Below are positions 1 to 19,344 of a DNA stretch of 64,000 bases, in pieces (the first letter of the stretch is position 1; the number at the start of each line of letters is the position of its first letter). This DNA is from an uncultured Prevotellaceae bacterium (GTDB lineage: Bacteria; Bacteroidota; Bacteroidia; Bacteroidales; Bacteroidaceae), in assembly GCA_900314755.1 (NCBI GenBank), contig OMWH01000002.1, positions 25,926-89,925 on the forward strand, written 5' to 3'. The translations under genes and the position numbers were made by a program. Under the pieces are notes generated by a model. It was not told the origin of the DNA. It was given only the letters and a program-made list of their open reading frames with translations, and did no database searches.

Positions 1-407
1 ACAGATTTGTTGCCATCCTTTTCTTTCTGTTTGATTTGCTCCCAATTATCAAGCACCTGCTCCGCATTCTTAGCGACAACGCTGCCATAGACATGCGGAT
101 GACGGAATATCATCTTATCACACAGCTTGTTACATACATCGGCTATATCAAACTGCGACTTTTCCTCTCCTATTCTACTATAGAAGACAATATGAAGAAG
201 AACATCGCCCAGTTCTTTACATATTTCTGTAGCGTCATCCCGCAGAAGCGCATCGCTGAGTTCGTATGCTTCCTCTAAAGTATTGGGACGCAACGACTCA
301 TTTGTTTGTTTCCTATCCCATGGGCACTCCACCCTCAGACGATCCATCACATCCAGCAATCGCCCGAAAGCAGCCATTTTTTCATCTCTTGTATGTTTTT
401 GTTCCAT
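1..407 (-). CDS. mazG: Nucleoside triphosphate pyrophosphohydrolase MazG (5' part, runs off the window)
   Basis: Not in the ORF track. Manual reverse translation from ATG 407 gives MEQKHTRDEKMAAFGRLLDVMDRLRVECPWDRKQT...EEAYE...ELGDVLLHIVFYS...KMIFRHPHVYG, the MazG signature. Confidence 0.93.
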   Translation of the reverse strand, partial: MEQKHTRDEKMAAFGRLLDVMDRLRVECPWDRKQTNESLRPNTLEEAYELSDALLRDDATEICKELGDVLLHIVFYSRIGEEKSQFDIADVCNKLCDKMIFRHPHVYGSVVAKNAEQVLDNWEQIKQKEKDGNKS

Positions 408-415
408 AATCAATC

Positions 416-494
416 GCAAAAGTACAAAATAAAAACGAAACTACCAAATTTCATCGACCTATTTGGCAGTTTCAATTTTTTTATGTACTTTTGC
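416..494. promoter_or_regulatory. Back-to-back Bacteroidetes sigma-A promoters for mazG and valS
   Basis: + strand: TTTG 462-465, 20-nt spacer, TACTTTTG 486-493. - strand: mirror boxes at 445-448 and 417-424, also with a 20-nt spacer. Confidence 0.8.
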
Positions 495-513
495 ACGTCA
501 TTATTAAATAAGT

Positions 514-3222: not shown

Positions 3223-3223
3223 A

Positions 3224-4033
3224 ATGCCAATCATAGAGATTACAAGCCTCTCCCAACCTGGTGTAGAAATATTCAGCCAACTGACTGAATCACAATTACG
3301 TAACAGGATTGAACCCGAAAAGGGTATCTTTATCGTGGAAAGTCCGAAAGTAATCCGTGTGGCTATACAAACAGGTTACCAACCTGTTGCACTGCTTTGT
3401 GAGCGAAAACATATTGATGGGGATGCTGCCGATATTATAAAACATTGCGACGGCATCCCAATTTATACAGGTAGCCGGGAACTACTGGCAAGTTTGACAG
3501 GCTATACCCTTACCAGAGGGGTGCTCTGCGCCATGCGCCGACCAATCCCGCTAAGTGTGGAGAAAGTTTGCAAAGACGCACATCATATTGTAGTAATAGA
3601 TGGTGTGGTGGATACGACCAATATAGGAGCGATTTTCCGCTCTGCAGCAGCATTAGGAATGGATGCCGTTTTATTGACCACCGACTCTTGTGACCCTTTT
3701 AACCGCAGGGCTGTCCGGGTATCAATGGGGTCTGTATTTCTTGTCCCTTGGACATGGATAGATGGGAATATCAATCAACTGCGCGCTTGGGGATTCAAAA
3801 CACTGGCAATGGCACTGGCAGACAACTCTCTCCCACTCGATGCGCCCATCCTGAAACAGGAGGAACGGCTTGCCATCATCATGGGAACTGAAGGTGACGG
3901 ACTACCCAAAGAAGTCATTGCCGATGCCGACTATGTAGTAAGAATCCCTATGGCACATAGTGTCGACTCACTCAATGTCGCTGCTGCGTCAGCTGTCGCT
4001 TTTTGGGAACTGACAAGGAAATCTCAGAATTAA
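3224..4033 (+). CDS. TrmH/SpoU family RNA methyltransferase
   Basis: NIGAIFRSAAALG, MGTEGDGL, VRIPMAHSVDSLNVAAA motifs. Confidence 0.92.
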   Translation: MPIIEITSLSQPGVEIFSQLTESQLRNRIEPEKGIFIVESPKVIRVAIQTGYQPVALLCERKHIDGDAADIIKHCDGIPIYTGSRELLASLTGYTLTRGVLCAMRRPIPLSVEKVCKDAHHIVVIDGVVDTTNIGAIFRSAAALGMDAVLLTTDSCDPFNRRAVRVSMGSVFLVPWTWIDGNINQLRAWGFKTLAMALADNSLPLDAPILKQEERLAIIMGTEGDGLPKEVIADADYVVRIPMAHSVDSLNVAAASAVAFWELTRKSQN

Positions 4034-4084
4034 TCAAATAATTTTGAATATCTCTTTTTTTATTCGTATCTTTGCAAACGCATT

Positions 4085-5194
4085 ATGGAGAATAACAGTA
4101 TATTACAGAAACTGGACGGACTGGAAGCCCGCTTTGAGGAGGTATCTACACTGATTACCGACCCTAATGTGATAGCCGACCAGAACCGTTTCGTGAAACT
4201 TACGAAGGAATATAAGGATTTGGGCGACATCATGGATGCCCGCAAACGCTATATTGCCTGTCTGAATAGTATCAAAGAGGCAAAAGACATCCTTGCCAAT
4301 GAGGACGATGCCGAAATGAAGGAGATGGCTCGTGAGGAACTTGCCGAAAACGAAGCGTTACAACCCAAGCTGGAGGAGGAAATCAAAATTGCCCTTATTC
4401 CGAAGGACCCCGAGGACGCCAAGAACGTGCAGATGGAAATCCGTGCGGGAACTGGTGGTGATGAGGCGTGTCTGTTTGCTGGCGATTTGTTTAAGATGTA
4501 TAAGAGTTTTTGTGACTCGAAAGGGTGGCAACTCGCTGTTACCAGTGTCTCAGAGGGAGCAGTGGGCGGTTATAAGGAAATCGACTTCGCCGTGAGCGGT
4601 GCGGATGTCTACGGTACTTTGAAATATGAATCAGGAGTTCACCGTGTTCAGCGTGTGCCTGCTACGGAGACGCAGGGTCGAATGCACACTTCTGCAGCCA
4701 CTGTCGCTGTACTTCCTGAAGCTGACAAGTTTGAGGTTCATATCAACGAGGGAGAGATTAAATGGGACACTTTCCGAAGCAGTGGTGCCGGTGGGCAGAA
4801 TGTTAACAAGGTGGAGTCTGGTGTTCGCCTGCGTTATATGTGGAAAAATCCCAATACGTGTGAGACGGAGGAGATACTTATTGAATGTACTGAGACACGT
4901 GACCAGCCGAAGAACAAAGAACGTGCCCTCTCGCGCTTGTACACTTTTATATATGACAAGGAGCACCAAAAATATATGGACGATATCGCTTCACGTCGAA
5001 AGACACTGGTATCTACTGGTGACCGTTCGGCGAAGATTCGAACCTATAACTTCCCACAAGGACGTGTGACAGATCACCGCATTGGTTATACTACTCACGA
5101 CTTACAAGGTTTCCTCGGCGGTGACATCCAGCCCATGATAGATGCACTGACCGTTGCTGAAAATGCAGAGCGCATGAAAGAATCAGAACTATAA
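4085..5194 (+). CDS. prfA: Peptide chain release factor 1
   Basis: GGQ motif ([10 protein letters not shown]), [24 protein letters not shown]. Confidence 0.97.
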
Positions 5195-5198
5195 GATT

Positions 5199-6053
5199 AT
5201 GAATAGACAAGAGTTAATACAGCAAATCAAAGAGAAACAATCGTTTCTCTGCGTAGGTCTGGACACAGACATCAACAAGATTCCCCAGTGCATCATTGAG
5301 GAAGCAAGGGCTAAGGATGGAGAAGATTATATCTTCAGAGCTCTCTGTGAGTTTAACGCCCTCATCATTGATGCGACAGCACCCTATTGTGTCGCCTACA
5401 AGCCCAATCTTGCCTTTTATGAGGCATACGGTGTAGACGGCATTCTTGCCTTTGAGGCAACTATCGACTACTTAAAGGAGGAATATCCTAACCACTTTGT
5501 CATCGCTGATGCCAAGCGTGGGGATATAGGCAACACCTCAAAGATGTATGCCAAGACTTTCTTTGAAGAATATGATGTCGACGCACTGACCGTTGCACCT
5601 TATATGGGCGAAGATTCTGTGACGCCCTTCCTCGGCTATGATAACAAATGGGTCATTCTACTGGCATTGACCTCGAATAAAGGTTCGCTTGACTTTCAGT
5701 TGACGGAAGACAAAAATGGCGTTCGCTTGTTTGAGAAAGTCCTAAAACAAAGTCAGCAGTGGGGTAATGATGAGAATATGATGTATGTTGTAGGAGCCAC
5801 CCAGGGACGTATGTTTGAGGACATCCGTAAAGTAGCCCCAACCCATTTCCTGCTTGTTCCAGGTGTCGGAGCACAAGGAGGCAGTTTACAGGAAGTATGC
5901 CAATACGGTATGACAAAAGACTGCGGGTTGCTTGTTAATTCTTCACGCGGTATTATTTATGCTAGCAATGGAGAATACTTTGCTGAGGTAGCCGCCCAAA
6001 AAGCCAAAGAGCTGCAAGAGCAGATGGCAGAAGAAATAAAGAAGAGGATGTAA
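5199..6053 (+). CDS. pyrF: Orotidine-5'-phosphate decarboxylase
   Basis: [40 protein letters not shown]. Confidence 0.96.
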
Positions 6054-6061
6054 GAATCATC

Positions 6062-6754
6062 TTACGGCAAAGGTTTTACATAGCGCATCTCATGAAGGAT
6101 GCGCTTTTGTCTTTTTAAGACATAAGCACTAGGTCTTGCGGAATTATAGCGTAAAGGATTAGGTAATGTGGCGGCAATCAACGCACACTCCGCACTAGTT
6201 AATTGGGAGGCGGTTTTATGAAAATGCCATTCTGCTACAGCATCAACACCATAGATTCCATCCCCCATCTCTATGGAATTCAAATAGACTTCCATAATAC
6301 GCTGTTTCGACCACATCAGCTCTATCAGTGCTGTAAAATAAACCTCAAAGCCTTTTCGTAACCAAGAGCGACCTGGCCATAGAAAAACATTCTTTGCCGT
6401 CTGCTGAGAGATGGTAGAGGCACCTAACTTCCGTTTCTCTGGGTGCTTGAGATTACGGATAGCAGCATGTTCTATCGCTTTATAGTCAAACCCATGATGG
6501 TCCAGAAAACGCGCATCCTCACTTCCCATTACAGCTAGTGACATAGAGGGAGAAATTTCCTCAAAGGGTACCCAATGGTGATGTAACGTCAGATCTTTAC
6601 CCTCTGATATTTGTTCACCTAGACGAATGAACATCAAGGGTGTGAACCAGACAGGAACCCAACGTAATACGACCACAGAAAGAATAGTGGAGGCAAAAAA
6701 AGCCACCACTATCCACATGAAAAATCTTTTAATCTTATGTAGTAATGTTTTCAT
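6062..6754 (-). CDS. mtgA: Monofunctional biosynthetic peptidoglycan transglycosylase
   Basis: EDARFLDHHGFD, GASTISQQTAKNVFL, RK..E, YLNSIEMG; N-terminal TM helix. Confidence 0.93.
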   Translation of the reverse strand: MKTLLHKIKRFFMWIVVAFFASTILSVVVLRWVPVWFTPLMFIRLGEQISEGKDLTLHHHWVPFEEISPSMSLAVMGSEDARFLDHHGFDYKAIEHAAIRNLKHPEKRKLGASTISQQTAKNVFLWPGRSWLRKGFEVYFTALIELMWSKQRIMEVYLNSIEMGDGIYGVDAVAEWHFHKTASQLTSAECALIAATLPNPLRYNSARPSAYVLKRQKRILHEMRYVKPLP

Positions 6755-7422
6755 TACTGAAGTGTACCTGCTTCAGCCTTTTGGATCATCTCCTTGCTGG
6801 CATACATGTATACTTCCACGCGACGGTTCTGCTGACGACCTGCAGCAGTAGAGTTATCGGCAACAGGATTTGTTGAACCTTGTCCCTCTACACTCTTAAT
6901 CTGCTTAGCCTGAACACCACATGAACGAAGATAGTTGTTTACGCTATTGGCACGATTAACTGACAATGGCTGGTTAATAGCATCGCTACCAGTGTTATCA
7001 GTATGACCGATGATAGCTACATCACAGTCTGTATTGGAGTTCAACACACGGGCAAACTCTGCGAGAGAGTTCTTCGCACTAGTGCTAAGATCAGCCTTAC
7101 CAGTAGCGAAAAGAATACCTGAGTCAAAGGTTACCTTTACTGCATCCAGACCATTGGTGTCCTTAACAGTCTCCACCTGGGCGTTCTGAACCTGCTGAGC
7201 CTGCTGTTTAGCCTTATCCATTTTCTTACCGATAATAGCGCCAGCACCAGCACCAACAGCACCGCCAACAGCAACACCCACTGCAGTATTACCAGCTATA
7301 GCACCAATAATACCACCCAATAAAGCACCGCCACCGGCACCAATACCTGCACCCTTCTGGGTGTTGTTACAAGCAAAGAGCATTCCTACGCAAAGTAACA
7401 AAGAAACAATTTTAATTTTCAT
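6754..7422 (-). CDS. OmpA-family lipoprotein with glycine zipper
   Basis: Lipobox LFAC, Gly-zipper, GHTDNTG, QNRRVE OmpA_C motifs. Confidence 0.9.
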   Translation of the reverse strand: MKIKIVSLLLCVGMLFACNNTQKGAGIGAGGGALLGGIIGAIAGNTAVGVAVGGAVGAGAGAIIGKKMDKAKQQAQQVQNAQVETVKDTNGLDAVKVTFDSGILFATGKADLSTSAKNSLAEFARVLNSNTDCDVAIIGHTDNTGSDAINQPLSVNRANSVNNYLRSCGVQAKQIKSVEGQGSTNPVADNSTAAGRQQNRRVEVYMYASKEMIQKAEAGTLQ

Positions 7423-7547
7423 ATTACATTTAATTTAAATATGGTGATAATTTTGAGGCAAAGATACAAATTAATTTTGAACTTGGTGATTATATTTCAT
7501 AATTATTTCGTAATTTTGCACCAAATTTTGAAAATTGAAGTAATTTT

Positions 7548-9029
7548 ATGGCAAAAGAACTCAAAGAAATGACCAAAAGAGCTGACAATTATAGTCAGTG
7601 GTATAACGACTTGGTGGTGAAGGCCGACCTTGCTGAGCAGTCAGCAGTGCGCGGCTGCATGGTCATCAAGCCATACGGCTATGCTATCTGGGAGAAAATG
7701 CAGCAGCAGTTAGATAAGATGTTTAAGGAGACTGGTGCTCAGAATGCCTATTTCCCACTTCTCATCCCAAAGTCGTTCCTCAGCCGCGAGGCAGAACATG
7801 TAGAGGGATTCGCCAAGGAGTGTGCCGTCGTGACCCACTATCGCCTGCGTGCCAAGGAGGACAAAAGCGGTGTAGAGGTTGATCCTGCCGCAAAATTGGA
7901 AGAGGAACTAATTGTTCGTCCCACTTCTGAGACAATTATCTGGAACACCTATAAAAACTGGATTCACTCTTGGCGCGACCTGCCTTTGATGTGCAACCAA
8001 TGGTGTAATGTTATGCGCTGGGAAATGCGTACCCGTCCTTTCCTCCGCACCTCTGAGTTCTTGTGGCAGGAGGGCCATACCGCCCATGCCACCAAGGAGG
8101 AAGCTGAGCAGGAAGCACAGAAGATGCTAGGCGTATACGCTAAGTTCGCTGAAGAGTGGATGGCTGTTCCTGTACTTCAGGGCGTGAAAAGTGAGACAGA
8201 GCGTTTTGCCGGTGCACTTGACACGTACACCATTGAGGCAATGATGCAAGACGGTAAGGCTTTGCAGAGCGGTACTTCCCATTTCCTCGGTCAAAACTTT
8301 GCTAAGGCTTTTGAGGTCACCTATTTAAATAAAGAGAATAAGCCGGAATATGTCTGGGCTACATCATGGGGCGTATCCACCCGGTTAATCGGTGCACTCA
8401 TTATGACTCACTCCGATGACAACGGTTTAGTACTTCCCCCACGTCTTGCTCCTATCCAGGTCGTCATCATCCCTATTGCCAACAAGCCAGAACAGATGGA
8501 GATTGTCAACAAGGAGGTACAACCCATCATTGAGGAGCTACGCTCCAAAGGCATCACCGTGAAGTTTGACGATTCTGACAACAAGCGTCCCGGTTTTAAG
8601 TTTGCTGATTATGAATTGAAAGGTGTACCTGTTCGCTTAGTACTCGGAGCTCGTGACTTAGAGAGTGGTACGATTGAGGTGATGCGTCGTGACACTCTGG
8701 AAAAAGAGACCCGCCCAGTGGAAGATATTGCCCAGTATGTAGAGCAACTGTTGGAAGATATACAGAAAAACATCTTCGAGAAAGCACGCAAGTATCGTGA
8801 TGAGCATGTCTATGTATGTGACAACTACGAGGAATTTAAAGAGCGTGTAAAAGACGGTGGCTTTTTCCTTTGTCACTGGGATGGTACTGCAGAGACAGAG
8901 GCAAAAATCAAAGAAGAGACTCAAGCAACAATTCGTTGTGTGCCTTTTGCTTACGAGCAGACTCCCGGAACAGACATGGTCAGTGGCAAACCCGCAAAAT
9001 ATCGTGTTATTATTGCCCGCAGCTATTAG
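7548..9029 (+). CDS. proS: Proline--tRNA ligase (archaeal/eukaryote-like type typical of Bacteroidetes)
   Basis: [45 protein letters not shown]. Confidence 0.97.
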
Positions 9030-9049
9030 TATTGTACGAAAAATCAATA

Positions 9050-9107
9050 AATTACAGAAACTTCTGGTCAAAACATTTGGTAATGACCAGAAGTTTTTGT
9101 AATTTTG
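9050..9107. promoter_or_regulatory. 21-bp inverted repeat (probable proS terminator) overlapping the rpsA promoter
   Basis: AATTACAGAAACTTCTGGTCA (9050-9070) and TGACCAGAAGTTTTTGTAATT (9084-9104), 1 mismatch. TTTG 9076-9079, 20-nt spacer, TAATTTTG 9100-9107. Confidence 0.7.
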
Positions 9108-9185
9108 CAGCCGATTTGCGGAAACATGCCGCAATTACAGTTCACATAAAGTCCAACTTTATTAATTTACAAACAATTTTTAATT

Positions 9186-10967
9186 ATGTCAGAATTAACA
9201 AAGAACGTCCAGCCATTGAACGACTTCAACTGGGAAGAGTTTGAGAATGGCATGGCAGTAAACGTCAGCAAGGAAGAGCTTGACAAAGCGTATGATGAGA
9301 CGCTGAACAAAGTCAGCGAGCATCAGGTTGTCGACGGTAAAGTAATCAGTGTCGACAAGAAAGAGGTAGTCGTAAACATCGGCTATAAGAGCGACGGTAT
9401 CATACCCGCTTCTGAATTCCGTTACAACCCCGATTTGAAAGTGGGTGACACCGTAGAGGTTTATGTAGAGAACGCAGAAGATAAGAAGGGGCAGCTCGTC
9501 CTCTCACACAAAAAGGCTCGTCTCTCTAAGAGTTGGGATCGTGTCAATGCTGCTCTTGACAACGAGGAAATCGTTCAGGGTTACATCAAGTGCCGCACGA
9601 AGGGCGGTATGATTGTTGACGTATTCGGTATCGAGGCATTCTTGCCCGGTAGCCAGATTGACGTTCACCCCATACGTGACTATGATCAGTTCGTAGGCAC
9701 AAACATGGACTTCAAGATTGTGAAGATCAATCAGGAGTTCCGCAACGTTGTTGTCTCTCACAAAGCCCTTATTGAGGCTGAGTTGGAGGCTCAGAAGAAA
9801 GAAATTATCGGCAAGCTGGAGAAGGGTCAGATTCTTGAGGGTACCGTTAAGAACATCACTTCCTATGGTGTATTCGTTGACCTCGGTGGTGTTGACGGAC
9901 TCATTCACATCACCGATCTCTCTTGGGGTCGCGTAGACGATCCTCATAAGGTAGTTGAGCTTGACCAGAAGATTAATGTCGTTATTCTCGACTTCGATGA
10001 TGAGAAGAAGCGCATCGCCCTCGGTCTGAAGCAGCTCACTCCACATCCATGGGATGCACTGGATGCTGACCTGAAGGTTGGTGACCATGTGAAAGGTAAG
10101 GTTGTCGTTATCGCTGACTATGGCGCATTCGTTGAGATTCAGCCTGGTGTAGAGGGTCTGATTCACGTATCTGAGATGTCTTGGAGCCAGCACCTTCGTT
10201 CCGCTCAGGAGTTCCTGAAAGTGGGTGACGAAGTAGAGGCTGTTATCCTGACCCTCGACCGTGACGAGCGTAAGATGTCTCTCGGTATCAAGCAGTTGAA
10301 GGAAGACCCATGGGAAGCTATCGAGGTTAAATATCCTGTTGGCAGCAAGCACACTGCAAAGGTTCGCAACTTCACCAACTTTGGTGTATTCGTTGAACTG
10401 GAAGAGGGTGTTGATGGTCTGATTCATATTAGTGACCTCTCTTGGACCAAGAAGGTTAAGCATCCTTCTGAGTTCACTCAGGTTGGTGCGGAGATTGATG
10501 TTGTCGTTCTTGATATTGACAAGGAGAATCGCCGTCTCTCTCTCGGTCACAAGCAGTTGGAGGACAATCCTTGGGATGTATTCGAGGCTAAGTACACCGT
10601 TGGCTCTATTCACGAGGGTAAGATCATCGAATTGCTCGAGAAGGGTGCTGTTGTATCCCTCGACAAGGATGTTGAGGGATTTGCCACTCCTAAGCACCTC
10701 GTTAAGGAGGATGGCTCACAGGCACAGCTCAATGAGGAACTCCCCTTCAAGGTTATTGAGTTCAACAAGGACTCTAAGCGCATCATCCTGTCTCACAGCC
10801 GTACCTTCGAGGATCCTCAGCGTGAGGAGAAGAAGGCTGCTGCCAAGAAGACACGTGCTGCCAAGAAGGACGATACTCCAAAGATTGAGAATGTCGCTGC
10901 CAGCACCACACTCGGTGACATCGACGTACTCGCAGAATTGAAGGCTAAGATGGAGAAGGGCGAGTAA
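9186..10967 (+). CDS. rpsA: 30S ribosomal protein S1
   Basis: Six S1 repeats (FGVFVEL, DGLIHISDLSW); strong codon bias. Confidence 0.98.
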   Translation: MSELTKNVQPLNDFNWEEFENGMAVNVSKEELDKAYDETLNKVSEHQVVDGKVISVDKKEVVVNIGYKSDGIIPASEFRYNPDLKVGDTVEVYVENAEDKKGQLVLSHKKARLSKSWDRVNAALDNEEIVQGYIKCRTKGGMIVDVFGIEAFLPGSQIDVHPIRDYDQFVGTNMDFKIVKINQEFRNVVVSHKALIEAELEAQKKEIIGKLEKGQILEGTVKNITSYGVFVDLGGVDGLIHITDLSWGRVDDPHKVVELDQKINVVILDFDDEKKRIALGLKQLTPHPWDALDADLKVGDHVKGKVVVIADYGAFVEIQPGVEGLIHVSEMSWSQHLRSAQEFLKVGDEVEAVILTLDRDERKMSLGIKQLKEDPWEAIEVKYPVGSKHTAKVRNFTNFGVFVELEEGVDGLIHISDLSWTKKVKHPSEFTQVGAEIDVVVLDIDKENRRLSLGHKQLEDNPWDVFEAKYTVGSIHEGKIIELLEKGAVVSLDKDVEGFATPKHLVKEDGSQAQLNEELPFKVIEFNKDSKRIILSHSRTFEDPQREEKKAAAKKTRAAKKDDTPKIENVAASTTLGDIDVLAELKAKMEKGE

Positions 10968-10992
10968 TCCCCTACTCCTTCCAATAAACAAA

Positions 10993-11024
10993 AAGAGGAT
11001 GTGTCTATTTTTACACATCCTCTT
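10993..11024. terminator. Intrinsic (bidirectional-type) terminator after rpsA
   Basis: AAGAGGATGTGT-CTATTTTT-ACACATCCTCTT, 12-bp stem. Confidence 0.85.
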
Positions 11025-11561
11025 CTTATTTTCATTATTCACATGCTGTTGTCCTTTGAACTGTTTGCCATTCTTGTGATTGTCATGGTCATCATTTCTC
11101 TTACTGCCAAAGATAAGACAGAACCTCTGAAAGGCTACGGGAAAGGCAATGGGTAGGTACGTCAGCGGGAATGGGCGAATAAGTTCGGGTAATCGACAAA
11201 ATCGCTTTGCTTGCAAAAATTGTTCAGTGAAACTGTCGTCATAACCTAACATGTTTAAACGTCCGCTGCAAAATTAATAGAAGTTAAAAATGTCTTTATT
11301 TATGGCGTTTTCTGGATATAGTAGAGGTATTGTGACAAAAAAATAACTAACTTTGCTGTCGCAGACTACACTACCGCTTGTATGGATAGGCAGGACGCAT
11401 ATATACTGATTAGTGTTTACAAATGCTGACTTGACTTTCCCAAACTTCGCAAACTTGGAAAGTGGATGAGGTGATGTAAGAGGCCCACACTTTTCTTTAT
11501 ATATCCTCCAATAGATATTAACACTCCAGTTTTGGGCTTGGCTGGCATATTTATATATAAT

Positions 11562-12296
11562 ATGTCTGAGGGAAGGGTTTGCCCGTACTGTAAAAACGAG
11601 CTTGCTGATGACAAGGGTGGTACTGCTACTAAGGCCGTGAATTGGGCTTTGACTGTAGCAGGAGATTTTGCTCTGACATCTTTAAACATTAAAGGCTCAT
11701 TCAGTGGTGGACAAGTTCTGCCTGTACCTATGAAATGCCATAATTGTGGCCGAAGATATAGTGACGCATGGGGAAGCTTGTCTATGAAAAAGGAATATTC
11801 ATTACGATACCTTTTAGACAACCTTAGACGAAATTACGAACCAAAATATATAAGCGAGGACAAGGAAACAACGGATAAACTGTATAGGGAAAGAAATGAA
11901 AAGATGCTGCAAGATTTGCAGAAAATATTAAATATAAACTTGTCTGAGGCTGTTACGGAAGAATTTTTGCAAACTCATGGTTATGACGCTTGTAATTACC
12001 TCTTAAAAGAAATTGGAGAAGATAAACCACTTAAAGAACTTTTTCGATACAATACAAAAGAAACGCTTTTCCCAATAATAAACAAGATAATTAAAAGTAA
12101 AGGGGATAAGGAAAATTTGCCTTGCCATATAAATTATAAGCACAAGATGAAAGATCTTGGCGTTACTGGTTTTTTTACATCAGGTACTTTCTTGACTGAA
12201 TTAAGAAAGTGTTATGGTGATTTGCCGGATATACCATACCCAGACGATAATATTATGTTAGGCAATTATATCTCAAAAGTCCTATCCTCTTTATGA
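11562..12296 (+). CDS. Hypothetical protein with N-terminal zinc-ribbon-like CPYC...CHNC
   Basis: ORF 11532-12296; likely ATG 11562 after an AT-rich tract. Two CxxC pairs. Promoter box TAACTTTG at 11348-11355. Confidence 0.7.
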   Translation: MSEGRVCPYCKNELADDKGGTATKAVNWALTVAGDFALTSLNIKGSFSGGQVLPVPMKCHNCGRRYSDAWGSLSMKKEYSLRYLLDNLRRNYEPKYISEDKETTDKLYRERNEKMLQDLQKILNINLSEAVTEEFLQTHGYDACNYLLKEIGEDKPLKELFRYNTKETLFPIINKIIKSKGDKENLPCHINYKHKMKDLGVTGFFTSGTFLTELRKCYGDLPDIPYPDDNIMLGNYISKVLSSL

Positions 12297-12306
12297 TTTT
12301 CAATGA

Positions 12307-12347
12307 GAGTCGGACGTTTTTTGTCATACTAGCGAAATAATTTTGCC
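12307..12347 (+). promoter_or_regulatory. Promoter with conserved upstream operator, copy 1
   Basis: GAGTCGGAC-GTT-TTTTGTC-N12-TAATTTTGCC, 17 nt before ATG 12365. Confidence 0.75.
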
Positions 12348-12364
12348 AGGCATAAATAAAAAAC

Positions 12365-13780
12365 ATGGAAGAGAAAAGAATTATATTAGGCATAGATGTT
12401 GATGATGGAAATGTTTTCAATTCCTACATTAAATCAGCTGTTTCGCAAGCAGAGATAGAGCTGTTGACGCTAGACGAATCCATAGAATCAATTAAATCAA
12501 TAAAGCCTAATTGCGACAAAACAGATTATGTTTTAGCTGCAAGTTCTGGGGCAATATGTGGTATAATTGACATATTTCTCGTAGGCAAGCCTGGTGAATC
12601 TGTATTAGGAGGTATCACTGACAAATGGTTTGAAAAACGAACTTGTGATTTTGCTAAATTATGTGGTTGGAAAGGAAATGACAAAAACCCCGTAAAGTCG
12701 GCAATAGGTTTTTTAGAGAGAAAATTTAAAGTTCCTTATGACCAGAGAGGATGTGGGGATGCTGGGGCTTTCATATACAATCTTACCCCTTCAAACCATC
12801 ACTTCAAGTCTTTGGCTCACAACCCGTCATTGCTTGGATTGTTTTTCTCTATTTTAGACCAATTCACAAATACTTCTCATTTTATATCTGAAGGTAAACT
12901 TATCGAGTTGGAGGAGGCTGATGATAAATTTCAGCTAAGAGGGAATAGCGTTATCAGTAAGTTTTGGTGCGGATTTGTGAACTGGTTTGGGCATCTTATG
13001 TCTGATGTGTCTGGAGCGTCAGGAAGTAAAACTAGAGGGATGGGAATACCATCGCCACTATGGACTTGGACTAACAGTGTTATCGCTATAAAAGCAAAGC
13101 TAAATCTCCCTATTAGTAAATTCGACAAGGATATAAATGAGTTTGCAATAAAAATATTTGAAGAGGGTTATGATACCAGATTCCAAGCCACACAAGTAAT
13201 ACCAGTATTGATAAATGAGTTTGTGGTTAGATTGTTTTATGCGATTAGGAGGCTTCTGAATTACTATTCCCACACAAATAAAGAAGAACGCTCTTTGAAA
13301 ACTGCATGGAAAGCATGTGAACCTTTCACCAATCCTACAGTGAAAAGAATGTTGCTGGTTGCTCATAGTACATTCTGTCTCATAGATATAGGAGAAGCTA
13401 CTGTAATAGGCTTTGCTACTGCTCCAGGTTCCTTTAATGCAAAGGAATTTCTTATGCACTTAAATATCGCAGGGATAGGGAGATTGTCTTTTTCTTTATA
13501 TGGCGAGGCAAAGATGCGGATTAATTACCGCAACGCAGAATTGGCAGCACAATATACCCAAAAAGAGAAACATATTGTCGAAAGATACATAGAAGGTCTA
13601 AATACTCTCAAAGTTCTTTATGATGACAGAGAGTATTTTACCTTCGTAGATGACCTAAAGATCAATAATTATATTGAAGCATTTGGTAAATCTGTGGAAT
13701 TGGCAAAGCTAAGAAATGCTCCAGTTAAATATGAATCTAAACAATCAATAGATGACTACTTTAATCCCAAACAGCAATGA
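12365..13780 (+). CDS. Hypothetical membrane-associated protein, possible metal-dependent hydrolase
   Basis: 471-aa ORF with hydrophobic helices, KVPYD, NHHFKSLAH and GHLMSD. ATGA overlap with the next gene. Confidence 0.8.
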   Translation: MEEKRIILGIDVDDGNVFNSYIKSAVSQAEIELLTLDESIESIKSIKPNCDKTDYVLAASSGAICGIIDIFLVGKPGESVLGGITDKWFEKRTCDFAKLCGWKGNDKNPVKSAIGFLERKFKVPYDQRGCGDAGAFIYNLTPSNHHFKSLAHNPSLLGLFFSILDQFTNTSHFISEGKLIELEEADDKFQLRGNSVISKFWCGFVNWFGHLMSDVSGASGSKTRGMGIPSPLWTWTNSVIAIKAKLNLPISKFDKDINEFAIKIFEEGYDTRFQATQVIPVLINEFVVRLFYAIRRLLNYYSHTNKEERSLKTAWKACEPFTNPTVKRMLLVAHSTFCLIDIGEATVIGFATAPGSFNAKEFLMHLNIAGIGRLSFSLYGEAKMRINYRNAELAAQYTQKEKHIVERYIEGLNTLKVLYDDREYFTFVDDLKINNYIEAFGKSVELAKLRNAPVKYESKQSIDDYFNPKQQ

Positions 13781-14892
13781 TTATGAGCAAGAAAAAAAAT
13801 AAACTTCAAGAAGCAGCTGAAAAAGTTAAGGCTGAGGTTGAACTTACTAATAGTAAGATCTCCGAGTTGGGCAATTATTCATATAGTCTCAATAATGTAT
13901 TAAACATCATACAGACTCAGTTTGATAAAATACGAAATATCCCAAGTGATAAACATATTGAGTATGACAAGATAAAGAAAGCCAGACTAACATGGACGCG
14001 TGAAGTTGAAAAAATAGAGGCCAATTACAAATCCTCTCAGACTATAAATGTTAGTTCAGGAGCAGCAGGAGCCGCAACTGGAGTCGGTGTTGTAACACTA
14101 GCTCCAACCGCAGCAATGAGTATTGCTACCACATTTGGTGTGGCTTCAACTGGAACAGCTATTTCCTCTCTAAGTGGAGCAGCTGCTACCAATGCGGCAT
14201 TAGCTTGGTTGGGCGGAGGAACATTGGCCGCTGGTGGCGGTGGAATGGCTGGAGGTTCTGCTCTTCTTGCTTTAGCAGGGCCTGTTGGCTGGTCTATTGC
14301 AGGTGTAGCCTTGTTAGGGGGTGGTATAATGTTTTGGCTTACATCATCCGACAAGAAAAAGTTGGAGGAGATCTATTGCTTGATTAGTGAAAGAGATATT
14401 AAGTCGTATGATTTGGCTATTGTTGAGTTGAATGAACGCATAACAAGAATTCAACAAGAGACTAAACTGCTTAATGATGCTATTGTTGAAATAGGGTCTT
14501 TTGGTACTGACTATACACAAATGAGCGAAAATCAGCAATATACGCTTGGGACATATCTTAATCAAATGATTTCTTCAACCCAACTTTTGATCAACCCAAT
14601 AATGGGACTCCAACCAAATTATTCAGAAAATGATTTTGAAAAATACTTATCTTTTCATAGAGTAGAGCCAAAGTATCGTGAAAAGAAAATAAAGAAGCTG
14701 GTAATATACATGGCAAATCTTCTGTTCGGCATAGAAACAGACGAGAAAGGTCGTAAGTTGCTTGCTAAATCATACAGAAAAAACAAAGAGTTTCTTAAAG
14801 ACATGAAATTAGAGAAGAAAGATGTTGATATAGAAATTCTAAATACTGTAGATGATGCTATAAAGTATAAGGAGGAATTGTCAAAGAAATAG
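13777..14892 (+). CDS. Hypothetical coiled-coil protein with long Gly/Ala-rich hydrophobic hairpin
   Basis: 371 aa; central STGTAISSLSGAAATNAALAWLGGGTLAAGGGGMAGG...GPVGW flanked by charged helical regions. Confidence 0.8.
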   Translation: MIMSKKKNKLQEAAEKVKAEVELTNSKISELGNYSYSLNNVLNIIQTQFDKIRNIPSDKHIEYDKIKKARLTWTREVEKIEANYKSSQTINVSSGAAGAATGVGVVTLAPTAAMSIATTFGVASTGTAISSLSGAAATNAALAWLGGGTLAAGGGGMAGGSALLALAGPVGWSIAGVALLGGGIMFWLTSSDKKKLEEIYCLISERDIKSYDLAIVELNERITRIQQETKLLNDAIVEIGSFGTDYTQMSENQQYTLGTYLNQMISSTQLLINPIMGLQPNYSENDFEKYLSFHRVEPKYREKKIKKLVIYMANLLFGIETDEKGRKLLAKSYRKNKEFLKDMKLEKKDVDIEILNTVDDAIKYKEELSKK

Positions 14893-14900
14893 TTTTCAAT

Positions 14901-15800
14901 ATGTCGCAGCTAAAGAAATGCCTTTATATCATTGACCTGCTTAGACGGAGGGGGGCTATGTCGCTGAATGAAATCAATGAATCATTCAGGTATTCTCCTT
15001 TGTACGATAAGAACATAGAACCTCGTACCTTCGCCCGATACAAAGACTTCATTGCCCTGAACTTTCCATATTACATAGAGTTCAACAATAGGACGAAGAA
15101 GTATGAGCTGTTTCGTGACAAGCCGCTATATGGTGAGGACAGTTCTCTCTACGACTATTTGTTGTCTGCCTACCATATACAAAGTATCACAGAACTTGCC
15201 ATAAAACACCAGGACAAGATAATGACGGCAGAAGTTCCAACGGGAGTAGAGAACGTACATATCATTCTGGAAGCCATCGACAAGCAGCGAGGTATAGAGT
15301 GTACCTACTATTCATTTACCAAAGAGTCTGCCAAAGAACAGACCATAATCCCCTGTTTCCTTAAAACCTGGGAAGGTCGTTGGTATCTGGTTGCCGAACC
15401 AGCAAACCAGCAACATGAACCTGCGGTATATGCCCTTGAACGCATGGATAACATCAGACTTACAGATAAGACCATGCGCCCAACCAAGAAGATTACACCA
15501 GAGAAATACTTTGACGGCAGTTTTGGTATCAACCATTCAGATGACCAGAAACCAGAGATAATAAGGATTAAGGTTTACGGTTCACAGGTTGCTTATGTCA
15601 GGACGCTCCCAATCCATGAATCTCAGAAAGAAGTTGAGACAACAGAGGACTGGAGCATCTTTGAGTATCGGCTTGTTCCATGCTTCAACTTGTATCAGGA
15701 GTTATTATGGCATCGTGAGAAAATTGAAGTCTTGGAACCTCTCTATGTCAGGGAAGAAATGAAAAACATTGTAGAGGCATTGCATAATATATATAAATAG
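14901..15800 (+). CDS. WYL-domain transcriptional regulator (HTH-WYL-WCX)
   Basis: N-terminal winged-HTH-like region, GRWYLVA, YALERM, YFDGSFGI, IEVLEPLYVREEM (WCX). Confidence 0.9.
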   Translation: MSQLKKCLYIIDLLRRRGAMSLNEINESFRYSPLYDKNIEPRTFARYKDFIALNFPYYIEFNNRTKKYELFRDKPLYGEDSSLYDYLLSAYHIQSITELAIKHQDKIMTAEVPTGVENVHIILEAIDKQRGIECTYYSFTKESAKEQTIIPCFLKTWEGRWYLVAEPANQQHEPAVYALERMDNIRLTDKTMRPTKKITPEKYFDGSFGINHSDDQKPEIIRIKVYGSQVAYVRTLPIHESQKEVETTEDWSIFEYRLVPCFNLYQELLWHREKIEVLEPLYVREEMKNIVEALHNIYK

Positions 15801-15845
15801 GTATGCTATGGTTCGTTATTTCTTTTATTTTCAAAATTTATTTTC

Positions 15846-15886
15846 GAGTCGGACACCTTTTGTCTGTTACCAAAACTAACTTTGCC
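15846..15886 (+). promoter_or_regulatory. Promoter with conserved upstream operator, copy 2
   Basis: GAGTCGGAC-ACC-TTTTGTC-N12-TAACTTTGCC, 33 nt before ATG 15920; spacing identical to copy 1. Confidence 0.75.
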
Positions 15887-15919
15887 CTCGAAATTAGTAA
15901 TTAATAGGAGAAATAAGTT

Positions 15920-16657
15920 ATGAATCAAGACAAAGACCTCGCGTTTCTCGCAACGTGTAAGAATGAAGATCTACGTACATTGTGCGACATTCTCACTTAT
16001 AACAAGAATGGGGAGGTTCGCATGAGTGAACAGCTTACAAACTCTGATGTCTACATCAACTGTTATCCAGACAAGATGAACCTCATGTCAAGGCAAATCG
16101 GGGAAGAACTGCGTAAGTTTGGCAGCAATACAGTTAAGACTTTCTGCCGTCAGGGTGAAGCAGACAGTTACGAAACCATTGTTCGCCGTGTATGTAAGCG
16201 AATGAAGGTGAATGTCGGTAGCAGCAATGACACTCAAACGATGGAGCGTGAACTGCTGACAACCATCTGTGAGCAATCTGCCAGTAAGATGTCCGATGAA
16301 GAACTGAGAAACATTGCGGACAAGGCAGGTATTCCCCATAAGTCTCTCAATAAGCAGATGCTGACATACGTTGTGATGATGGCAATTCGCAGAAACACCT
16401 ATCTTATGACTGAAATGCTCTATTATGTAACAACAAGTATTGCAGAAATGCTTCTTGGTCGTTGGATAACAATGATGGGTATGGGTACAGTAGGTCGCTA
16501 TCTTGGTATGGCAGCAGGGCCAATAGGCTGGGCTGCTTTGGCTGGTTGGACTATCAGCGATATTGCATCCCCGGCATATCGTGTGATGATACCAGCCGTG
16601 ATAATGGTTGCATCTATGCGCTTCCGTCAGACTGCATTGTTAACTCAAAAGATTTAG
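15920..16657 (+). CDS. YaaW / UPF0174 (DUF3944 N-terminal) family protein
   Basis: DKDLAFLATCKNEDLRTLCDILT, EELRKFGSN, GPIGW, SPAYRVMIPAV resemble E. coli YaaW (DSDLDFLQHCSEEQL, ELQHFGGD, SAYRVTIPAV), recalled from memory. Confidence 0.8.
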   Translation: MNQDKDLAFLATCKNEDLRTLCDILTYNKNGEVRMSEQLTNSDVYINCYPDKMNLMSRQIGEELRKFGSNTVKTFCRQGEADSYETIVRRVCKRMKVNVGSSNDTQTMERELLTTICEQSASKMSDEELRNIADKAGIPHKSLNKQMLTYVVMMAIRRNTYLMTEMLYYVTTSIAEMLLGRWITMMGMGTVGRYLGMAAGPIGWAALAGWTISDIASPAYRVMIPAVIMVASMRFRQTALLTQKI

Positions 16658-16662
16658 TGACT

Positions 16663-17445
16663 ATGGAAGCAAGAGACATCATGCACCCAGAGGATGCTAA
16701 AGCGATTCAGATGTTAAAACGCATAAAGGGTTTTGATGCCTTAGTCCGTGCCTCAATGGAACATGGCTACGAGAAAATCTTCCGTGGAGAGAATCTTGGA
16801 TGTATGGTAAGAGTGAATGCTCAGAATAGCCACAACCTATACACGGCTTTCAAAGGTGTTGTTCAAAAGGTTAGAATAGCAGAACCAGAGTTCTACATCT
16901 ATAATGATCCTGTTATGAATGCTTATACCTACGGAGAGACCAACACCTTCATTGCCGTTAGCAACTCACTCGTAGAACGGCTTACTATTGACGAGGTTAG
17001 AAGCGTCATAGCCCATGAGTGTGGGCATATTCTCTGCAAGCACACTTTCTACAACACCTTGCTACGGACGATAGAGGAACTTGGGCTTTGGTTTCAGCTT
17101 ATATCATATACAGCTTTTGCTCCTATTCTGATGGGATTGCAATATTGGAGCAGGAAAAGTGAGTATTCGGCTGATCGCTGTGCCGCTGCTGTAGTGGGTG
17201 AACGGACATTCCAGACTTCAATGCTGAAACTTACAACAGGATTGGCTGAGATCCAGGGGAATCCCTATCAACTTGTGGAACAGGCTAAGGAGTACCATCG
17301 TTTCGTTAACGATTCATGGTGGAACCGTATTCAGCAGAATTGCCGTGTGGCTTTTAATAGTCATCCTCAGATGTGTGAACGTGCCTGGGAGATCGACCGT
17401 TGGAAGAACTCATGGGCATATCGGAAATTGTATATGTCAAATTGA
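16663..17445 (+). CDS. M48 family zinc metallopeptidase (HtpX/Ste24-like)
   Basis: HEXXH (AHECGH), NAYTYG, WSRKSEYSADR. Start moved from 16462 to ATG 16663, just after the upstream stop. Confidence 0.9.
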   Translation: MEARDIMHPEDAKAIQMLKRIKGFDALVRASMEHGYEKIFRGENLGCMVRVNAQNSHNLYTAFKGVVQKVRIAEPEFYIYNDPVMNAYTYGETNTFIAVSNSLVERLTIDEVRSVIAHECGHILCKHTFYNTLLRTIEELGLWFQLISYTAFAPILMGLQYWSRKSEYSADRCAAAVVGERTFQTSMLKLTTGLAEIQGNPYQLVEQAKEYHRFVNDSWWNRIQQNCRVAFNSHPQMCERAWEIDRWKNSWAYRKLYMSN

Positions 17446-17494
17446 CGGAACATTACAAAAACAAAATAATCCTGCTATCCCTGCTACAATGTGG

Positions 17495-17574
17495 GTGAAA
17501 TGCCGATGTATAAAGGGCGGAGCCTGTAGCACGATTGGGATTTATCCTGCTACAATGGTGCTACAACCCTGCTA
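17495..17574 (+). repeat. 80-bp direct repeat, copy 1
   Basis: GTGAAATGCCGATGTATAAAGGGCGGAGCCTGTAGCACGATTGGGATTTATCCTGCTACAATGGTGCTACAACCCTGCTA; 79/80 identical to 18921-19000. Confidence 0.95.
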
Positions 17575-17659
17575 TGACAAATTTTTTCTGGTTAAATTAC
17601 GACAATATAAGAATTCTTTTGTATATTTGCAAGCAAATAGAATTATCGTAGTATATACA

Positions 17660-18430
17660 ATGAAATTAGAGCATCTATACGAATTGATTGCCAACGAGGG
17701 CTTTACTGCTCTGACATTACAAGAAATAGATAACTACATAAAAGATATACAAAATGGGACAGAAGATTTTCCTCGATTCAATCTATCAGAGCATGCAGGA
17801 TTCTGCACGGCAGGTGCGTCTCTCATTGGGGCGTCCATCATCGCATGCTACGCGACAGCAAGCATTACAGCAAGTCGCAATGTTGAAGGCAGCCAAGGAA
17901 GCCCAGCAAACTGGGAAATAGACGAACGACAGGAGCAACTCATCGAGCAATGGGCTAAGGCTGCCAATTTGTGGGAGGATAACTCTGAGCAGATACTTGT
18001 AGATGAATTCGGTCCTATGATTGCTCAAGGAGCAGAGGCAAAGGTGTATTATAGCGATGGAAACACTTCGGTGGTAAAAGAGCGTACTTCCATCTATTCT
18101 ACTTGGCAAAAGGCACTTGATGCAATAGTATTGCATAATTGTCTCTTCCCTGAAACAGCCATGAAAGTTATTGGTTTTACTCGCGACAAAGACGGATTGA
18201 TGCGTATTGTACTGACACAGCCATACGTAAATTGTCTCCGATTGGCGACAAAGAAAGAAATAGACGATATGGTATTGGCAAAAGGATTTCGTGACAACTG
18301 GGACGGACAAGGAGTGAACTATGTCTCCGATCGTTTGGCACTTGAAGACATGCATCCTGCAAATGTTTTCATTGACACTGTGTCAGGAAAGCCAATTTGT
18401 ATTGATTGTATCGTGAAATTTGTGAAGTGA
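17660..18430 (+). CDS. Polyvalent-protein-type Ser/Thr/Tyr kinase (Kinase-PolyVal-like)
   Basis: QGAEAKVY (Gly loop), VVKE (Lys), EDMHPANV (catalytic loop), CIDC (DFG equivalent). Start moved to ATG 17660 after TATATTTG box. Confidence 0.78.
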   Translation: MKLEHLYELIANEGFTALTLQEIDNYIKDIQNGTEDFPRFNLSEHAGFCTAGASLIGASIIACYATASITASRNVEGSQGSPANWEIDERQEQLIEQWAKAANLWEDNSEQILVDEFGPMIAQGAEAKVYYSDGNTSVVKERTSIYSTWQKALDAIVLHNCLFPETAMKVIGFTRDKDGLMRIVLTQPYVNCLRLATKKEIDDMVLAKGFRDNWDGQGVNYVSDRLALEDMHPANVFIDTVSGKPICIDCIVKFVK

Positions 18431-18431
18431 T

Positions 18432-18468
18432 ACGACTGGCAGAGTAACATTTCTGCCAGTCGTTTTTT
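18432..18468 (+). terminator. Intrinsic terminator after kinase
   Basis: ACGACTGGCAGA-GTAACATT-TCTGCCAGTCGT followed by a T tract. Confidence 0.85.
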
Positions 18469-18560
18469 CCTACACGTAATTGTTGCCTTTTCTGTTTCTA
18501 ATACACGTACATTTAAATAAGCTTTATCTCGGCATCAATCACATAGATGTCGCCCTCGTC

Positions 18561-18671
18561 ATCGACAAGAACATTGCGAAGCGCTACGGCTTTACAGAAG
18601 AAGAACTTGACTTCATCATCAATTACGATATTAAGTATCGTATGGGTGATGAACTCAATGATAGTGAATAA
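18561..18671 (+). pseudogene. 3' remnant of a type IIG/Eco57I-like restriction-modification gene
   Basis: IDKNIAKRYGFTEEELDFIINYDIKYRMGDELNDSE* matches my recollection of the extreme C-terminus of such enzymes; no upstream gene body. Confidence 0.65.
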
Positions 18672-18686
18672 ATAATTGCTCCAAAA

Positions 18687-18718
18687 TTTGGAAGTTTGAA
18701 GAAAAGTTCCTATCTTTG
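18687..18718 (+). promoter_or_regulatory. Consensus Bacteroidetes promoter without an intact downstream gene
   Basis: TTTG 18687-18690, 20-nt spacer, TATCTTTG 18711-18718. Confidence 0.75.
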
Positions 18719-18920
18719 CACCCAGATGAGAGTTGCATATAGGCGCGATAATATCAAGCTCCGCAACCGTCGATTTATAAAGCCGTTGGTCGAGAACCTA
18801 CGGCTTTAATTCATTTATGATACTTTCAATCTCTCGGCGGGACTGCTCTTTAGCATTGACTACAACGGCCTCTCCATTAAACACTATGTTTAATTTTGCA
18901 TAAAAGATAGTGTAAATGGA

Positions 18921-19000
18921 GTGAAATGCCGATGTATAAAGGGCGGAGCCTGTAGCACGATTGGGATTTATCCTGCTACAATGGTGCTACAATCCTGCTA
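18921..19000 (+). repeat. 80-bp direct repeat, copy 2
   Basis: Matches 17495-17574 except one C/T. Confidence 0.95.
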
Positions 19001-19032
19001 CCAGACAGCGACTGTTTTTTGAGCGGTTTGCT

Positions 19033-19098
19033 TTTGGCTATAGCCGTTCAGTTGTTTGGCTGGAGCCGCACGGTTGTTTGGCTATAGCCGAACGGTTG
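19033..19098. repeat. 3 x 22-bp tandem repeat with palindromic GGCTATAGCC core
   Basis: TTTGGCTATAGCCGTTCAGTTG / TTTGGCTGGAGCCGCACGGTTG / TTTGGCTATAGCCGAACGGTTG. Confidence 0.9.
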
Positions 19099-19239
19099 AA
19101 AGGATGCTTCTAACTCCCTCGAAGGACGTACCTGATACCCCAACACCAGTAACCTGTTACCCCTACGCAAGGCATCTTTAACTGTGACCGGAGGCATCGG
19201 ACACTCTCGTCTTACAAAGCCTTAGGTTACGTTCATGAT

Positions 19240-19268
19240 GAGGATGTGTCAAAATAGGCACATCCTCT
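19240..19268 (-). terminator. Hairpin downstream of DUF3127 gene; inverted near-copy of the rpsA terminator
   Basis: GAGGATGTGTCAAAATAGGCACATCCTCT; its reverse complement is 27/29 identical to 10994-11022. Confidence 0.75.
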
Positions 19269-19344
19269 ATGAGACACAATAAGGCGGAAGACCTCACAGT
19301 CCTCCACCTTATTATATTATATAGGGCACCGTTAAAAGGTAATC

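Follow-up and report, generated by a model that had tools for sequence, protein, structure and literature searches.

The defence island considered here lies in a 64,000-nucleotide (nt) stretch of contig OMWH01000002.1 from an uncultured Prevotellaceae bacterium (the window, whose numbering is used throughout). Positions 1-11000 are occupied by core genes (ValRS, SpoU methylase, release factor, PyrF, ProRS and ribosomal protein S1) and, from 19345, DUF3127, dnaN and an exonuclease follow. The strain-variable phage-defence island between them (11064-19202) encodes a Bunzi-like BnzB, PDC-M09A, a WYL regulator, JukA and an M48 protease. Its right edge, beside the core genes DUF3127 and dnaN, is marked by two direct repeats that enclose a kinase gene. 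Here, we describe the family to which these repeats belong, a dispersed, non-autonomous and gene-less sequence that bounds cargo differing from locus to locus and from strain to strain, as established by pattern scans and contig comparison, and that probably serves the exchange of this cargo by homologous recombination.

The two repeats (17495-17574 and 18921-19000) are 80 nt long each, identical at 79/80 positions and spaced 1426 bp, and their 72-nt core occurred exactly twice in the window vs. 0 times expected from shuffled sequence. The heptamer TGCTACA is present twice forward and once inverted in each copy, namely at 17548 and 17559 (plus strand) and 17525 (minus strand) in copy 1, and at 18974 and 18985 (plus strand) and 18951 (minus strand) in copy 2; an additional one is located at 17482, immediately 5' of copy 1. 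Over the whole window the heptamer was not enriched (12 occurrences vs. 8.6 expected), and 7 of the 12 are those just listed for the two repeats and the stretch before copy 1. This recount agrees with a first-pass annotation made from the sequence, which had described the repeats, their spacing and their heptamers. The promoter, kinase, terminator, restriction-modification (RM) remnant and orphan leader that it had placed between them were each located there and, again as reported, no recombinase was seen among the neighbouring genes.

Module boundaries were set by aligning paralogous and metagenomic copies, which resolved four modules plus a hairpin. The 80-mer proved to be part of a non-coding module of approximately 121 nt, termed L (17453-17574 in the window, plus strand), which scored 136 bits with an nhmmer model built from 56 distinct copies. 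In the alignment of copies, L consists of an A-rich lead (17453-17469), a box 1 with two direct iterons (17470-17494) and the part that is repeated in the window (17495-17574, plus strand), made up of the core GTGAAATGCCGATGTATAAAGGG, one inverted iteron CCTGTAGCACG and a box 2 whose three direct iterons recur every 11 nt. The degenerate units noticed earlier at 17468-17490 are real and belong to box 1. The 80 bp originally taken as the repeat unit, on the other hand, are only a portion of it: copy 2 (18921-19000, plus strand) is 5'-truncated and lacks the first 41 nt of L in comparison with the same locus in the metagenome contigs L097, L107 and L092, sister alleles in which both copies are full.

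L belongs in turn to a mosaic intergenic element, found at more than 60 loci in rumen Prevotella, whose full form reads U - T hairpin - L - L' - R. Many copies have U and T, a terminator hairpin, on the left side of L, and many have the paralogous unit L' immediately 3' of L; the short extra stretches seen 3' of L in some of them are L' remnants, with deletions in register with the iterons. R, a 22-nt minisatellite, comes after L or L-L' in most copies; in the window (19001-19202, plus strand) it opens with a weak hairpin and T run (CCAGACAGCGACTGTTTTTT), continues with about nine degenerate 22-nt units, three of which bear the dyad GGCTATAGCC (19033-19098), and its tail closes with ...CGCAAGGCATC...GGAGGCATCGGAC. 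The left ends of the element are AAATTTGGGG... (U) or ACAAAAACAAAATAA (L) and the right end is ...GGAGGCATCGGAC; comparison of left and right ends gave no inverted match, i.e., no terminal inverted repeats. Module U (GGGGACTTGCTCTGGCAAGCGACTTCGTCGATGACTGAATGATCCAC) presents TGA in all three frames within 11 nt, followed by the T hairpin, at many loci (e.g., L060, L063, L094 and L104), and is inverted in L113.

An exact-pattern scan returned 14 loci in species-representative genomes, 7 of which come from the isolate Prevotella sp. tf2-5; rumen metagenome contigs added another 45. The genome under study carries three copies. The third, on contig C17 between SusD and DUF6298 genes, has one L unit: its sequence corresponds to the 28 nt that precede copy 1, joined to a single 80-mer and to approximately 180 nt from behind copy 2. 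Likewise, two uninterrupted copies with one L unit each were found in unrelated contexts in the sister species G306. The orthologous SusD/DUF6298 loci of other species, with amino-acid identities of 61% or less, are too distant to provide an empty site for the whole element, the comparison from which a target-site duplication would be read. Several possible sources were rejected. A phage, cos/pac or attP origin was discarded after viral contigs, scanned twice by pattern, and phage records, compared by distant BLAST, had given no match; a transfer RNA (tRNA) or transfer-messenger RNA (tmRNA) target site was discarded because the window contains neither; and a two-ended transposon carrying the island was discarded because no inverted 22-nt unit or L is present at the left island border.

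The kinase cassette begins exactly where L ends. The junction CCTGCTA/TGAC (the slash separating L from cassette) is identical in every kinase-bearing contig and also in a decayed copy elsewhere in the genome (C6:40021-40072). Sequence reading placed in the cassette head (TGACAAATTTTTTCTGG..., 17575-17659, plus strand) a predicted Bacteroidetes-type -7 box, TATATTTG, at 17622-17629, followed by the gene for a stand-alone 256-aa serine/threonine/tyrosine kinase of the polyvalent-protein type (Kinase-PolyVal; 17660-18430, plus strand; PF18762, E 7.1e-33). The kinase had no match in PADLOC, PHROG or PDB sequences. Homologues with 67-74% DNA identity occur in unrelated contexts in three other species, and the idea that these are flanked by L as well was rejected, as no L lies beside them. 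From its family and setting we infer that the kinase gene, with a promoter and a terminator to itself, may be exchangeable cargo that acts in defence or counter-defence, which would place it outside the machinery of the repeat.

Downstream of the kinase, module T (18432-18469, plus strand) is a terminator hairpin, ACGACTGGCAG...CTGCCAGTCGT, with 13 pairs at 18432-18463 and a T run behind them; the same hairpin family stands immediately 5' of L at many other loci. The next feature is the C-terminal tail remnant of an Eco57I-type (type IIG-like) RM methylase (18480-18671, plus strand), recognized by DNA matches: positions 18574-18661 are 82-89% identical in five other Prevotella genomes, and in L013, from another species, the matching DNA encodes the end of a protein that is still intact and has a PF07669 score of 4.6e-28. 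The alternative that this remnant is the tail of the Type ISP enzyme of contig L078 (see below) was rejected, since the two have no similarity. The interval ends with an orphan promoter, TATCTTTG at 18711-18718, and its leader (18687-18920, plus strand), both assigned by sequence reading. When 18886-18920 was compared with L097 8744-8909, the leader of the sister allele was seen to continue into a 40-codon gene fragment (MDIQYFGNKELLRQQKTAFLASS...) that is cut away in the window, so that the leader is the relic of a truncated gene and a free-standing RNA gene is unlikely.

To follow the locus in the rumen population, metagenome contigs with flanks 99.0-99.6% identical to the window were regarded as same-locus alleles. 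Starting with the first base of L (17454), contig L078 is 99.8% identical to the window over the 1847 nt to the right, and it differs in the left island: in place of the Bunzi-like/WYL/JukA/M48 block (11064-17453), L078 carries a 1676-aa Type ISP restriction enzyme and a 93-aa open reading frame (ORF) at 1679-7581. L099 has the same Type ISP left flank, followed by a single L, R and DUF3127, without the kinase; it differs by exactly the 1426-bp unit and represents the single-repeat empty site for which the first-pass annotation had proposed to look.

In L097, L107 and L092, the whole kinase block is followed by 165 extra nt and a full L, giving two full L copies 1632 bp apart. Copy 2 of the window differs from these alleles by 206 bp (165 + 41 nt), the junction lying between the look-alikes AAATGGA and AATGTGG, and it is because of this difference that the repeat in the window is limited to 80 bp. 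In L097, the segment between rpsA and L contains an EcoRI-type methylase, GmrSD and other genes. Comparison of the segment from rpsA to L in the window, L078/L099 and L097 showed different cargo between equal conserved flanks in different strains, and the island swaps stop exactly at the left edge of L. The population holds an L-R form without kinase, a form with L, kinase block, full L and R, and a form with L, kinase block, truncated L and R, the last of these in the window and again with a different island left of L. A hairpin (GAGGATGTG...CACATCCTC) located behind DUF3127, at 19237-19270, is 93-97% identical in at least seven other Prevotella species and has an inverted twin at 10994-11022, at the left island border.

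Further arrangements were found outside this set of alleles. In another species (L091, L098 and L110), a 92% identical kinase sits straight between L and R, without a second L and without the methylase relic, and TGAC bounds the cassette on either side in contigs of the L091 type. Within the genome under study, a decayed copy directly behind a type III res gene (C6:40021-40140; L006) has lost the kinase; what is left of it are 21 nt from the end of L, 33 nt from the start of the cassette and the T hairpin. Beyond this decayed copy, iteron units and 22-nt repeats of other subfamilies extend up to a hybrid two-component regulator gene, which also adjoins L-R in L072, L086 and L102.

The L copies adjacent to the kinase fall into three haplotypes: GAG..C with C73 (L097, L105 and L107), which is the same as in the kinase-less L077; ATGTGG with C73 (window); and ATGTGG with T73 (L078). 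Three recombinant haplotypes at one and the same kinase junction indicate crossovers at different places inside L. In line with the suggestion of the first-pass annotation that the repeat might flank other cargo in the genome and its relatives, several such cases were detected. In L077, which represents this hotspot in a related species, the first bases of R accommodate a cassette of 490 nt (3020-3540) that has a promoter of its own, contains a 58-aa ORF and is flanked by a 12-14-nt direct repeat, CCAGACA[GA]CGAC. In L116, the opposite strand carries a DUF6169 gene pair, with a partial unit on one side and a full L on the other, and in L073 L-R and a partial L enclose a 417-aa gene, after which an MNT/HEPN pair comes next. 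Apart from cargo and core genes, no protein family recurs beside L, and no recombinase or transposase was found near any of approximately 60 loci.

A whole-genome search with the core motif yielded approximately 20 more units of the same layout and with other iterons (CATATAAC, CATCACC and CCTCCCAC). The common layout comprises two direct iterons, the core, one inverted iteron and two to four direct iterons with an 11-nt period. The core of L (ATGTGG.T.AAAYGCCGATGYAYAAAGGG) and its box layout are shared with the 100-112-nt terminal inverted repeats of single-gene elements of approximately 1.9 kb. Two such elements, of approximately 1.6-1.9 kb, lie outside the window, at C20:12340-13950 (L150 835-2450) and C35:500-2010 (L151), where CATATAAC-iteron units form 101-112-nt inverted repeats around a 400-aa gene with its own promoter, the downstream unit beginning 6-7 nt past the stop codon. 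The 400-aa protein contains VapE-like, DUF5906 and DUF3874 domains and matches the Rep1 protein of the staphylococcal pathogenicity island SaPI1 (7PDS) with E 1.8e-10. In a sample of 301 genomes of the genus, 85 encode a VapE-like protein, in up to five copies and often at contig ends; inverted repeats of at least 40 nt surround the gene at 15 of the 26 loci with enough flank, with lineage-specific iterons.

L, L', the third subfamily and the units of the helicase gene align across the core and the 11-nt periodic boxes, and an nhmmer model of L' matches the C20 units with E 3e-3 to 4e-3. Between L and L', the direct iterons change from CTGCTAC to CACTAC and the inverted one from TGTAGCA to GGTAGTG, all of them together, as expected of sites read by one protein, and one helicase lineage has TCACTAC iterons, near to that of L'. 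On the basis of the shared core, layout and alignment with the helicase units, we read L as an orphan member of the VapE-element unit superfamily, with a predicted iteron function. A literature search retrieved no description of the Prevotella mosaic element or of the helicase cassette.

The third subfamily (CATCACC / GGTGATG) was observed in the genome under study (G000) at C12:98380-98700 and 110050-110600, past the end of the window, and at C45:52373. Behind it come five units of a 22-nt minisatellite (TCCCACGGAGGGAATGATGGAT) and a tail resembling R, and in its core begins a hydrophobic ORF of 34-37 codons (MYKGIEV...), which the other subfamilies do not conserve. A small ORF starting from the core (MPMYKG...) was rejected as a product of the element; its ATG is replaced by CTTG in many sister units, and in L a stop follows after 9 codons.

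Taken together, we consider it fairly probable that L is an orphan iteron module that has spread without a gene of its own and serves homologous exchange of cargo in a defence hotspot. L would be an array of binding sites derived from the origin-like end of the helicase-element superfamily and, as a conserved repeat beside variable genes, it would act as a portable arm of homology. Cargo would be inserted, deleted and swapped when RecA-type homologous recombination takes place between two L copies, one on incoming DNA and one on the chromosome or both in the locus itself, and illegitimate deletions may have trimmed the relics and shortened copy 2 to 80 nt. Repeats of 80-121 nt are long enough for insertion or deletion by recombination. 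The varied crossovers and the varied positions of the cargo fit homologous recombination plus illegitimate deletion rather than an enzyme acting at a fixed site.

Several observations weigh against this explanation. No recombination event was seen directly, the mosaic L haplotypes being an indirect sign, and the observed alleles are compatible with both insertion and deletion of the cargo. The junction between L and the kinase falls exactly at the end of L and the deletions in L' are in register with the iterons, two features that a protein acting on the iterons would also explain. Further, this genome, tf2-5 and 30 surveyed loci yielded no VapE-like gene whose iterons are of the L type (CTGCTAC); the close VapE copies of this genome are of the CATATAAC type only, and no VapE homologue occurs among the ORFs beside approximately 60 L loci, so that homology of the units is the sole link between L and the helicase. 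Finally, the orientation of the units differs, being direct for the L copies around the kinase and inverted for the units around the helicase gene.

The alternative that fares best is that L is the site of a trans-acting recombinase, transposase or VapE-type helicase machinery, which would make the kinase block a true mobile cassette of integron- or transposon-like nature. Such a protein would be in keeping with the 11-nt iteron period, the co-variation of direct and inverted iterons between L and L', and the fact that sister units are the ends of a multi-copy, gene-bearing element. The exact kinase junction, the TGAC on either side of the L091-type cassette and the direct repeats around the small L077 cassette also speak for it. 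However, neither a recombinase or transposase nor any recurrent protein family other than cargo and core genes accompanies the approximately 60 loci, the crossover points inside L vary, and cargo junctions are found at several positions within the modules. SF3-type helicases are not known to cut and join DNA, and no Y1 transposase was found in this genome, for which reason the idea of a REP/RAYT system (repetitive extragenic palindromes with their tyrosine transposase), suggested by the CTAC/GTAG core of the iterons, was rejected. On balance, mobilization of the block by a dedicated protein is possible, though doubtful.

A more far-reaching proposal is that L-type modules are working origin-like sites, which a matching VapE-type helicase supplied by a satellite, a phage or a sister element would bind and unwind; over-replication or breakage would then amplify the locus, excise L-by-L circles and spread defence cassettes. 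We regard the proposal as rather unlikely.

It was also considered that L, or the whole U-T-L-R, acts as RNA, i.e., as a 3' untranslated region, a terminator/insulator or a small RNA module travelling with genes, in which case the duplication would merely represent two neighbouring transcription units that each end in the module. In favour of this, the upstream gene is co-oriented with L at 39 of 57 loci, the conserved hairpin T precedes L in many copies, and a hairpin with a T run opens R; moreover, the plus strand of R folds better than both shuffles and the minus strand (-50.4 vs. -34.5 kcal/mol, z -2.7), and the inverted iteron can pair with a direct one, a pairing kept in L' via three double changes. 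Nevertheless, every direct iteron has changed in concert and not just the one that pairs, 18 of the 57 copies lie behind an opposite-strand gene, and around the helicase gene these units are found in either orientation. The single strand of L, whose folding the first-pass annotation had put forward as a check, folds no better than shuffles (z -1.8 and -1.1). A structured RNA in R was rejected, as a compensatory change was found in only 1 of 41 predicted pairs, and so was a known RNA family: no Rfam match was obtained in the region even at E 1, and sister units gave only far sub-threshold microRNA and CRISPR noise. The short MPMYKG... ORF, as described above, is not conserved. A role as RNA is thus weakly supported and, in our judgement, quite improbable.

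Lastly, a one-off local duplication or an assembly artefact without wider meaning, the two outcomes that the first-pass annotation had named as fatal to its reading, is excluded: although the window holds only two copies and the genome is a draft of 48 contigs, independent assemblies show the identical structure (L078), its variants (L097, L107 and L092) and the single-repeat empty site (L099), and more than 60 additional copies exist elsewhere.

The DNA features that make hotspots are mostly unknown outside integrons and tRNA-linked islands, though defence islands turn over fast. In the natural rumen population examined here, the points at which cargo is exchanged coincide exactly with a defined repeat that is portable and lacks genes, and filled, empty and recombinant alleles are all available. 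Through its link with a family of VapE/DUF3874 helicase elements that has apparently not been described before, the repeat offers a testable DNA partner for a large uncharacterised family of Bacteroidales proteins and suggests that orphan origin-like sites can shape genome plasticity. Were the origin-like reading true, hijacked replication origins would be the centres around which rumen Prevotella assemble and exchange their defence islands, with a helicase and host recombination in place of an integrase. As a caution, repeats of this kind break assemblies and may mislead calls of island boundaries in metagenome-assembled Prevotella.

With regard to known systems, the first-pass annotation had proposed a nature like that of attC or of a MITE (a miniature transposable element with inverted repeats), and neither comparison holds in the strict sense. 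As in attC arrays, repeats of approximately 120 nt bound single-gene cassettes arrayed beside a fixed flank. In contrast to them, neither L nor its 80-nt part contains GTT, and hence there is no GTTRRRY box, the folds of L, no better than shuffles, do not show the imperfect palindrome expected across an attC site, the cassettes have their own promoters and terminators, the cargo of L116 is on the opposite strand, cargo occurs at other positions of the modules and the crossover is not at one fixed position; no integrase is present among the neighbours, a statement that covers the neighbouring genes and not a genome-wide search for intI. Of the classical MITE traits, the many short, gene-less intergenic copies (more than 60 loci) are present, but terminal inverted repeats are absent, no transposase-bearing parent was found, and the gene-bearing relatives of L carry a VapE/DUF3874 helicase instead of a transposase.

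In unit origin, the closest system is the Rep-ori pair of SaPIs and phage-inducible chromosomal islands (PICIs). SaPI Reps are self-loading helicases that bind cognate iteron origins (PMC9371898). Like these, the Prevotella helicase elements have short, lineage-specific direct and inverted iterons beside a VapE-family helicase gene. They differ in that their units are inverted repeats of approximately 110 nt around a lone chromosomal gene, without satellite or phage genes. The L units differ still more, as they come without a helicase gene, in direct orientation and in tandem with L' and a 22-nt minisatellite, and an origin role for them is a prediction read from sequence.

In build, the closest is BrickBuilt, a MITE of Porphyromonas gingivalis composed of a leader, a 23-nt tandem minisatellite and a tail, with IS5-type ends GAGACCTTTGCA (PMC4596501). 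Both reside in Bacteroidales and are strictly intergenic, multi-copy and modular, with many partial copies, the minisatellite unit being 22 nt in Prevotella. The BrickBuilt study reports no gene insertion within that element (PMC4596501), whereas the Prevotella element has cassettes inside. The IS5-type repeat GAGACCTTTGCA was searched at the Prevotella element and was absent, so that ends of the BrickBuilt type were rejected.

In exchange mechanism, finally, the closest are the mosaic repeats and minimal mobile elements of Neisseria. There, neisserial intergenic mosaic elements (NIMEs) and dRS3 repeats form mosaic intergenic repeat arrays, dRS3 repeats serve as a phage integration target, and strain-variable cassettes between conserved flanks are swapped by homologous recombination. 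The Prevotella element differs in having no sequence relation to these repeats, in belonging to another phylum, in a probable derivation of its repeat from the ends of helicase elements and in that phage integration was not seen here; what it shares with them is the combination of mosaic repeats with cassette exchange between conserved flanks.

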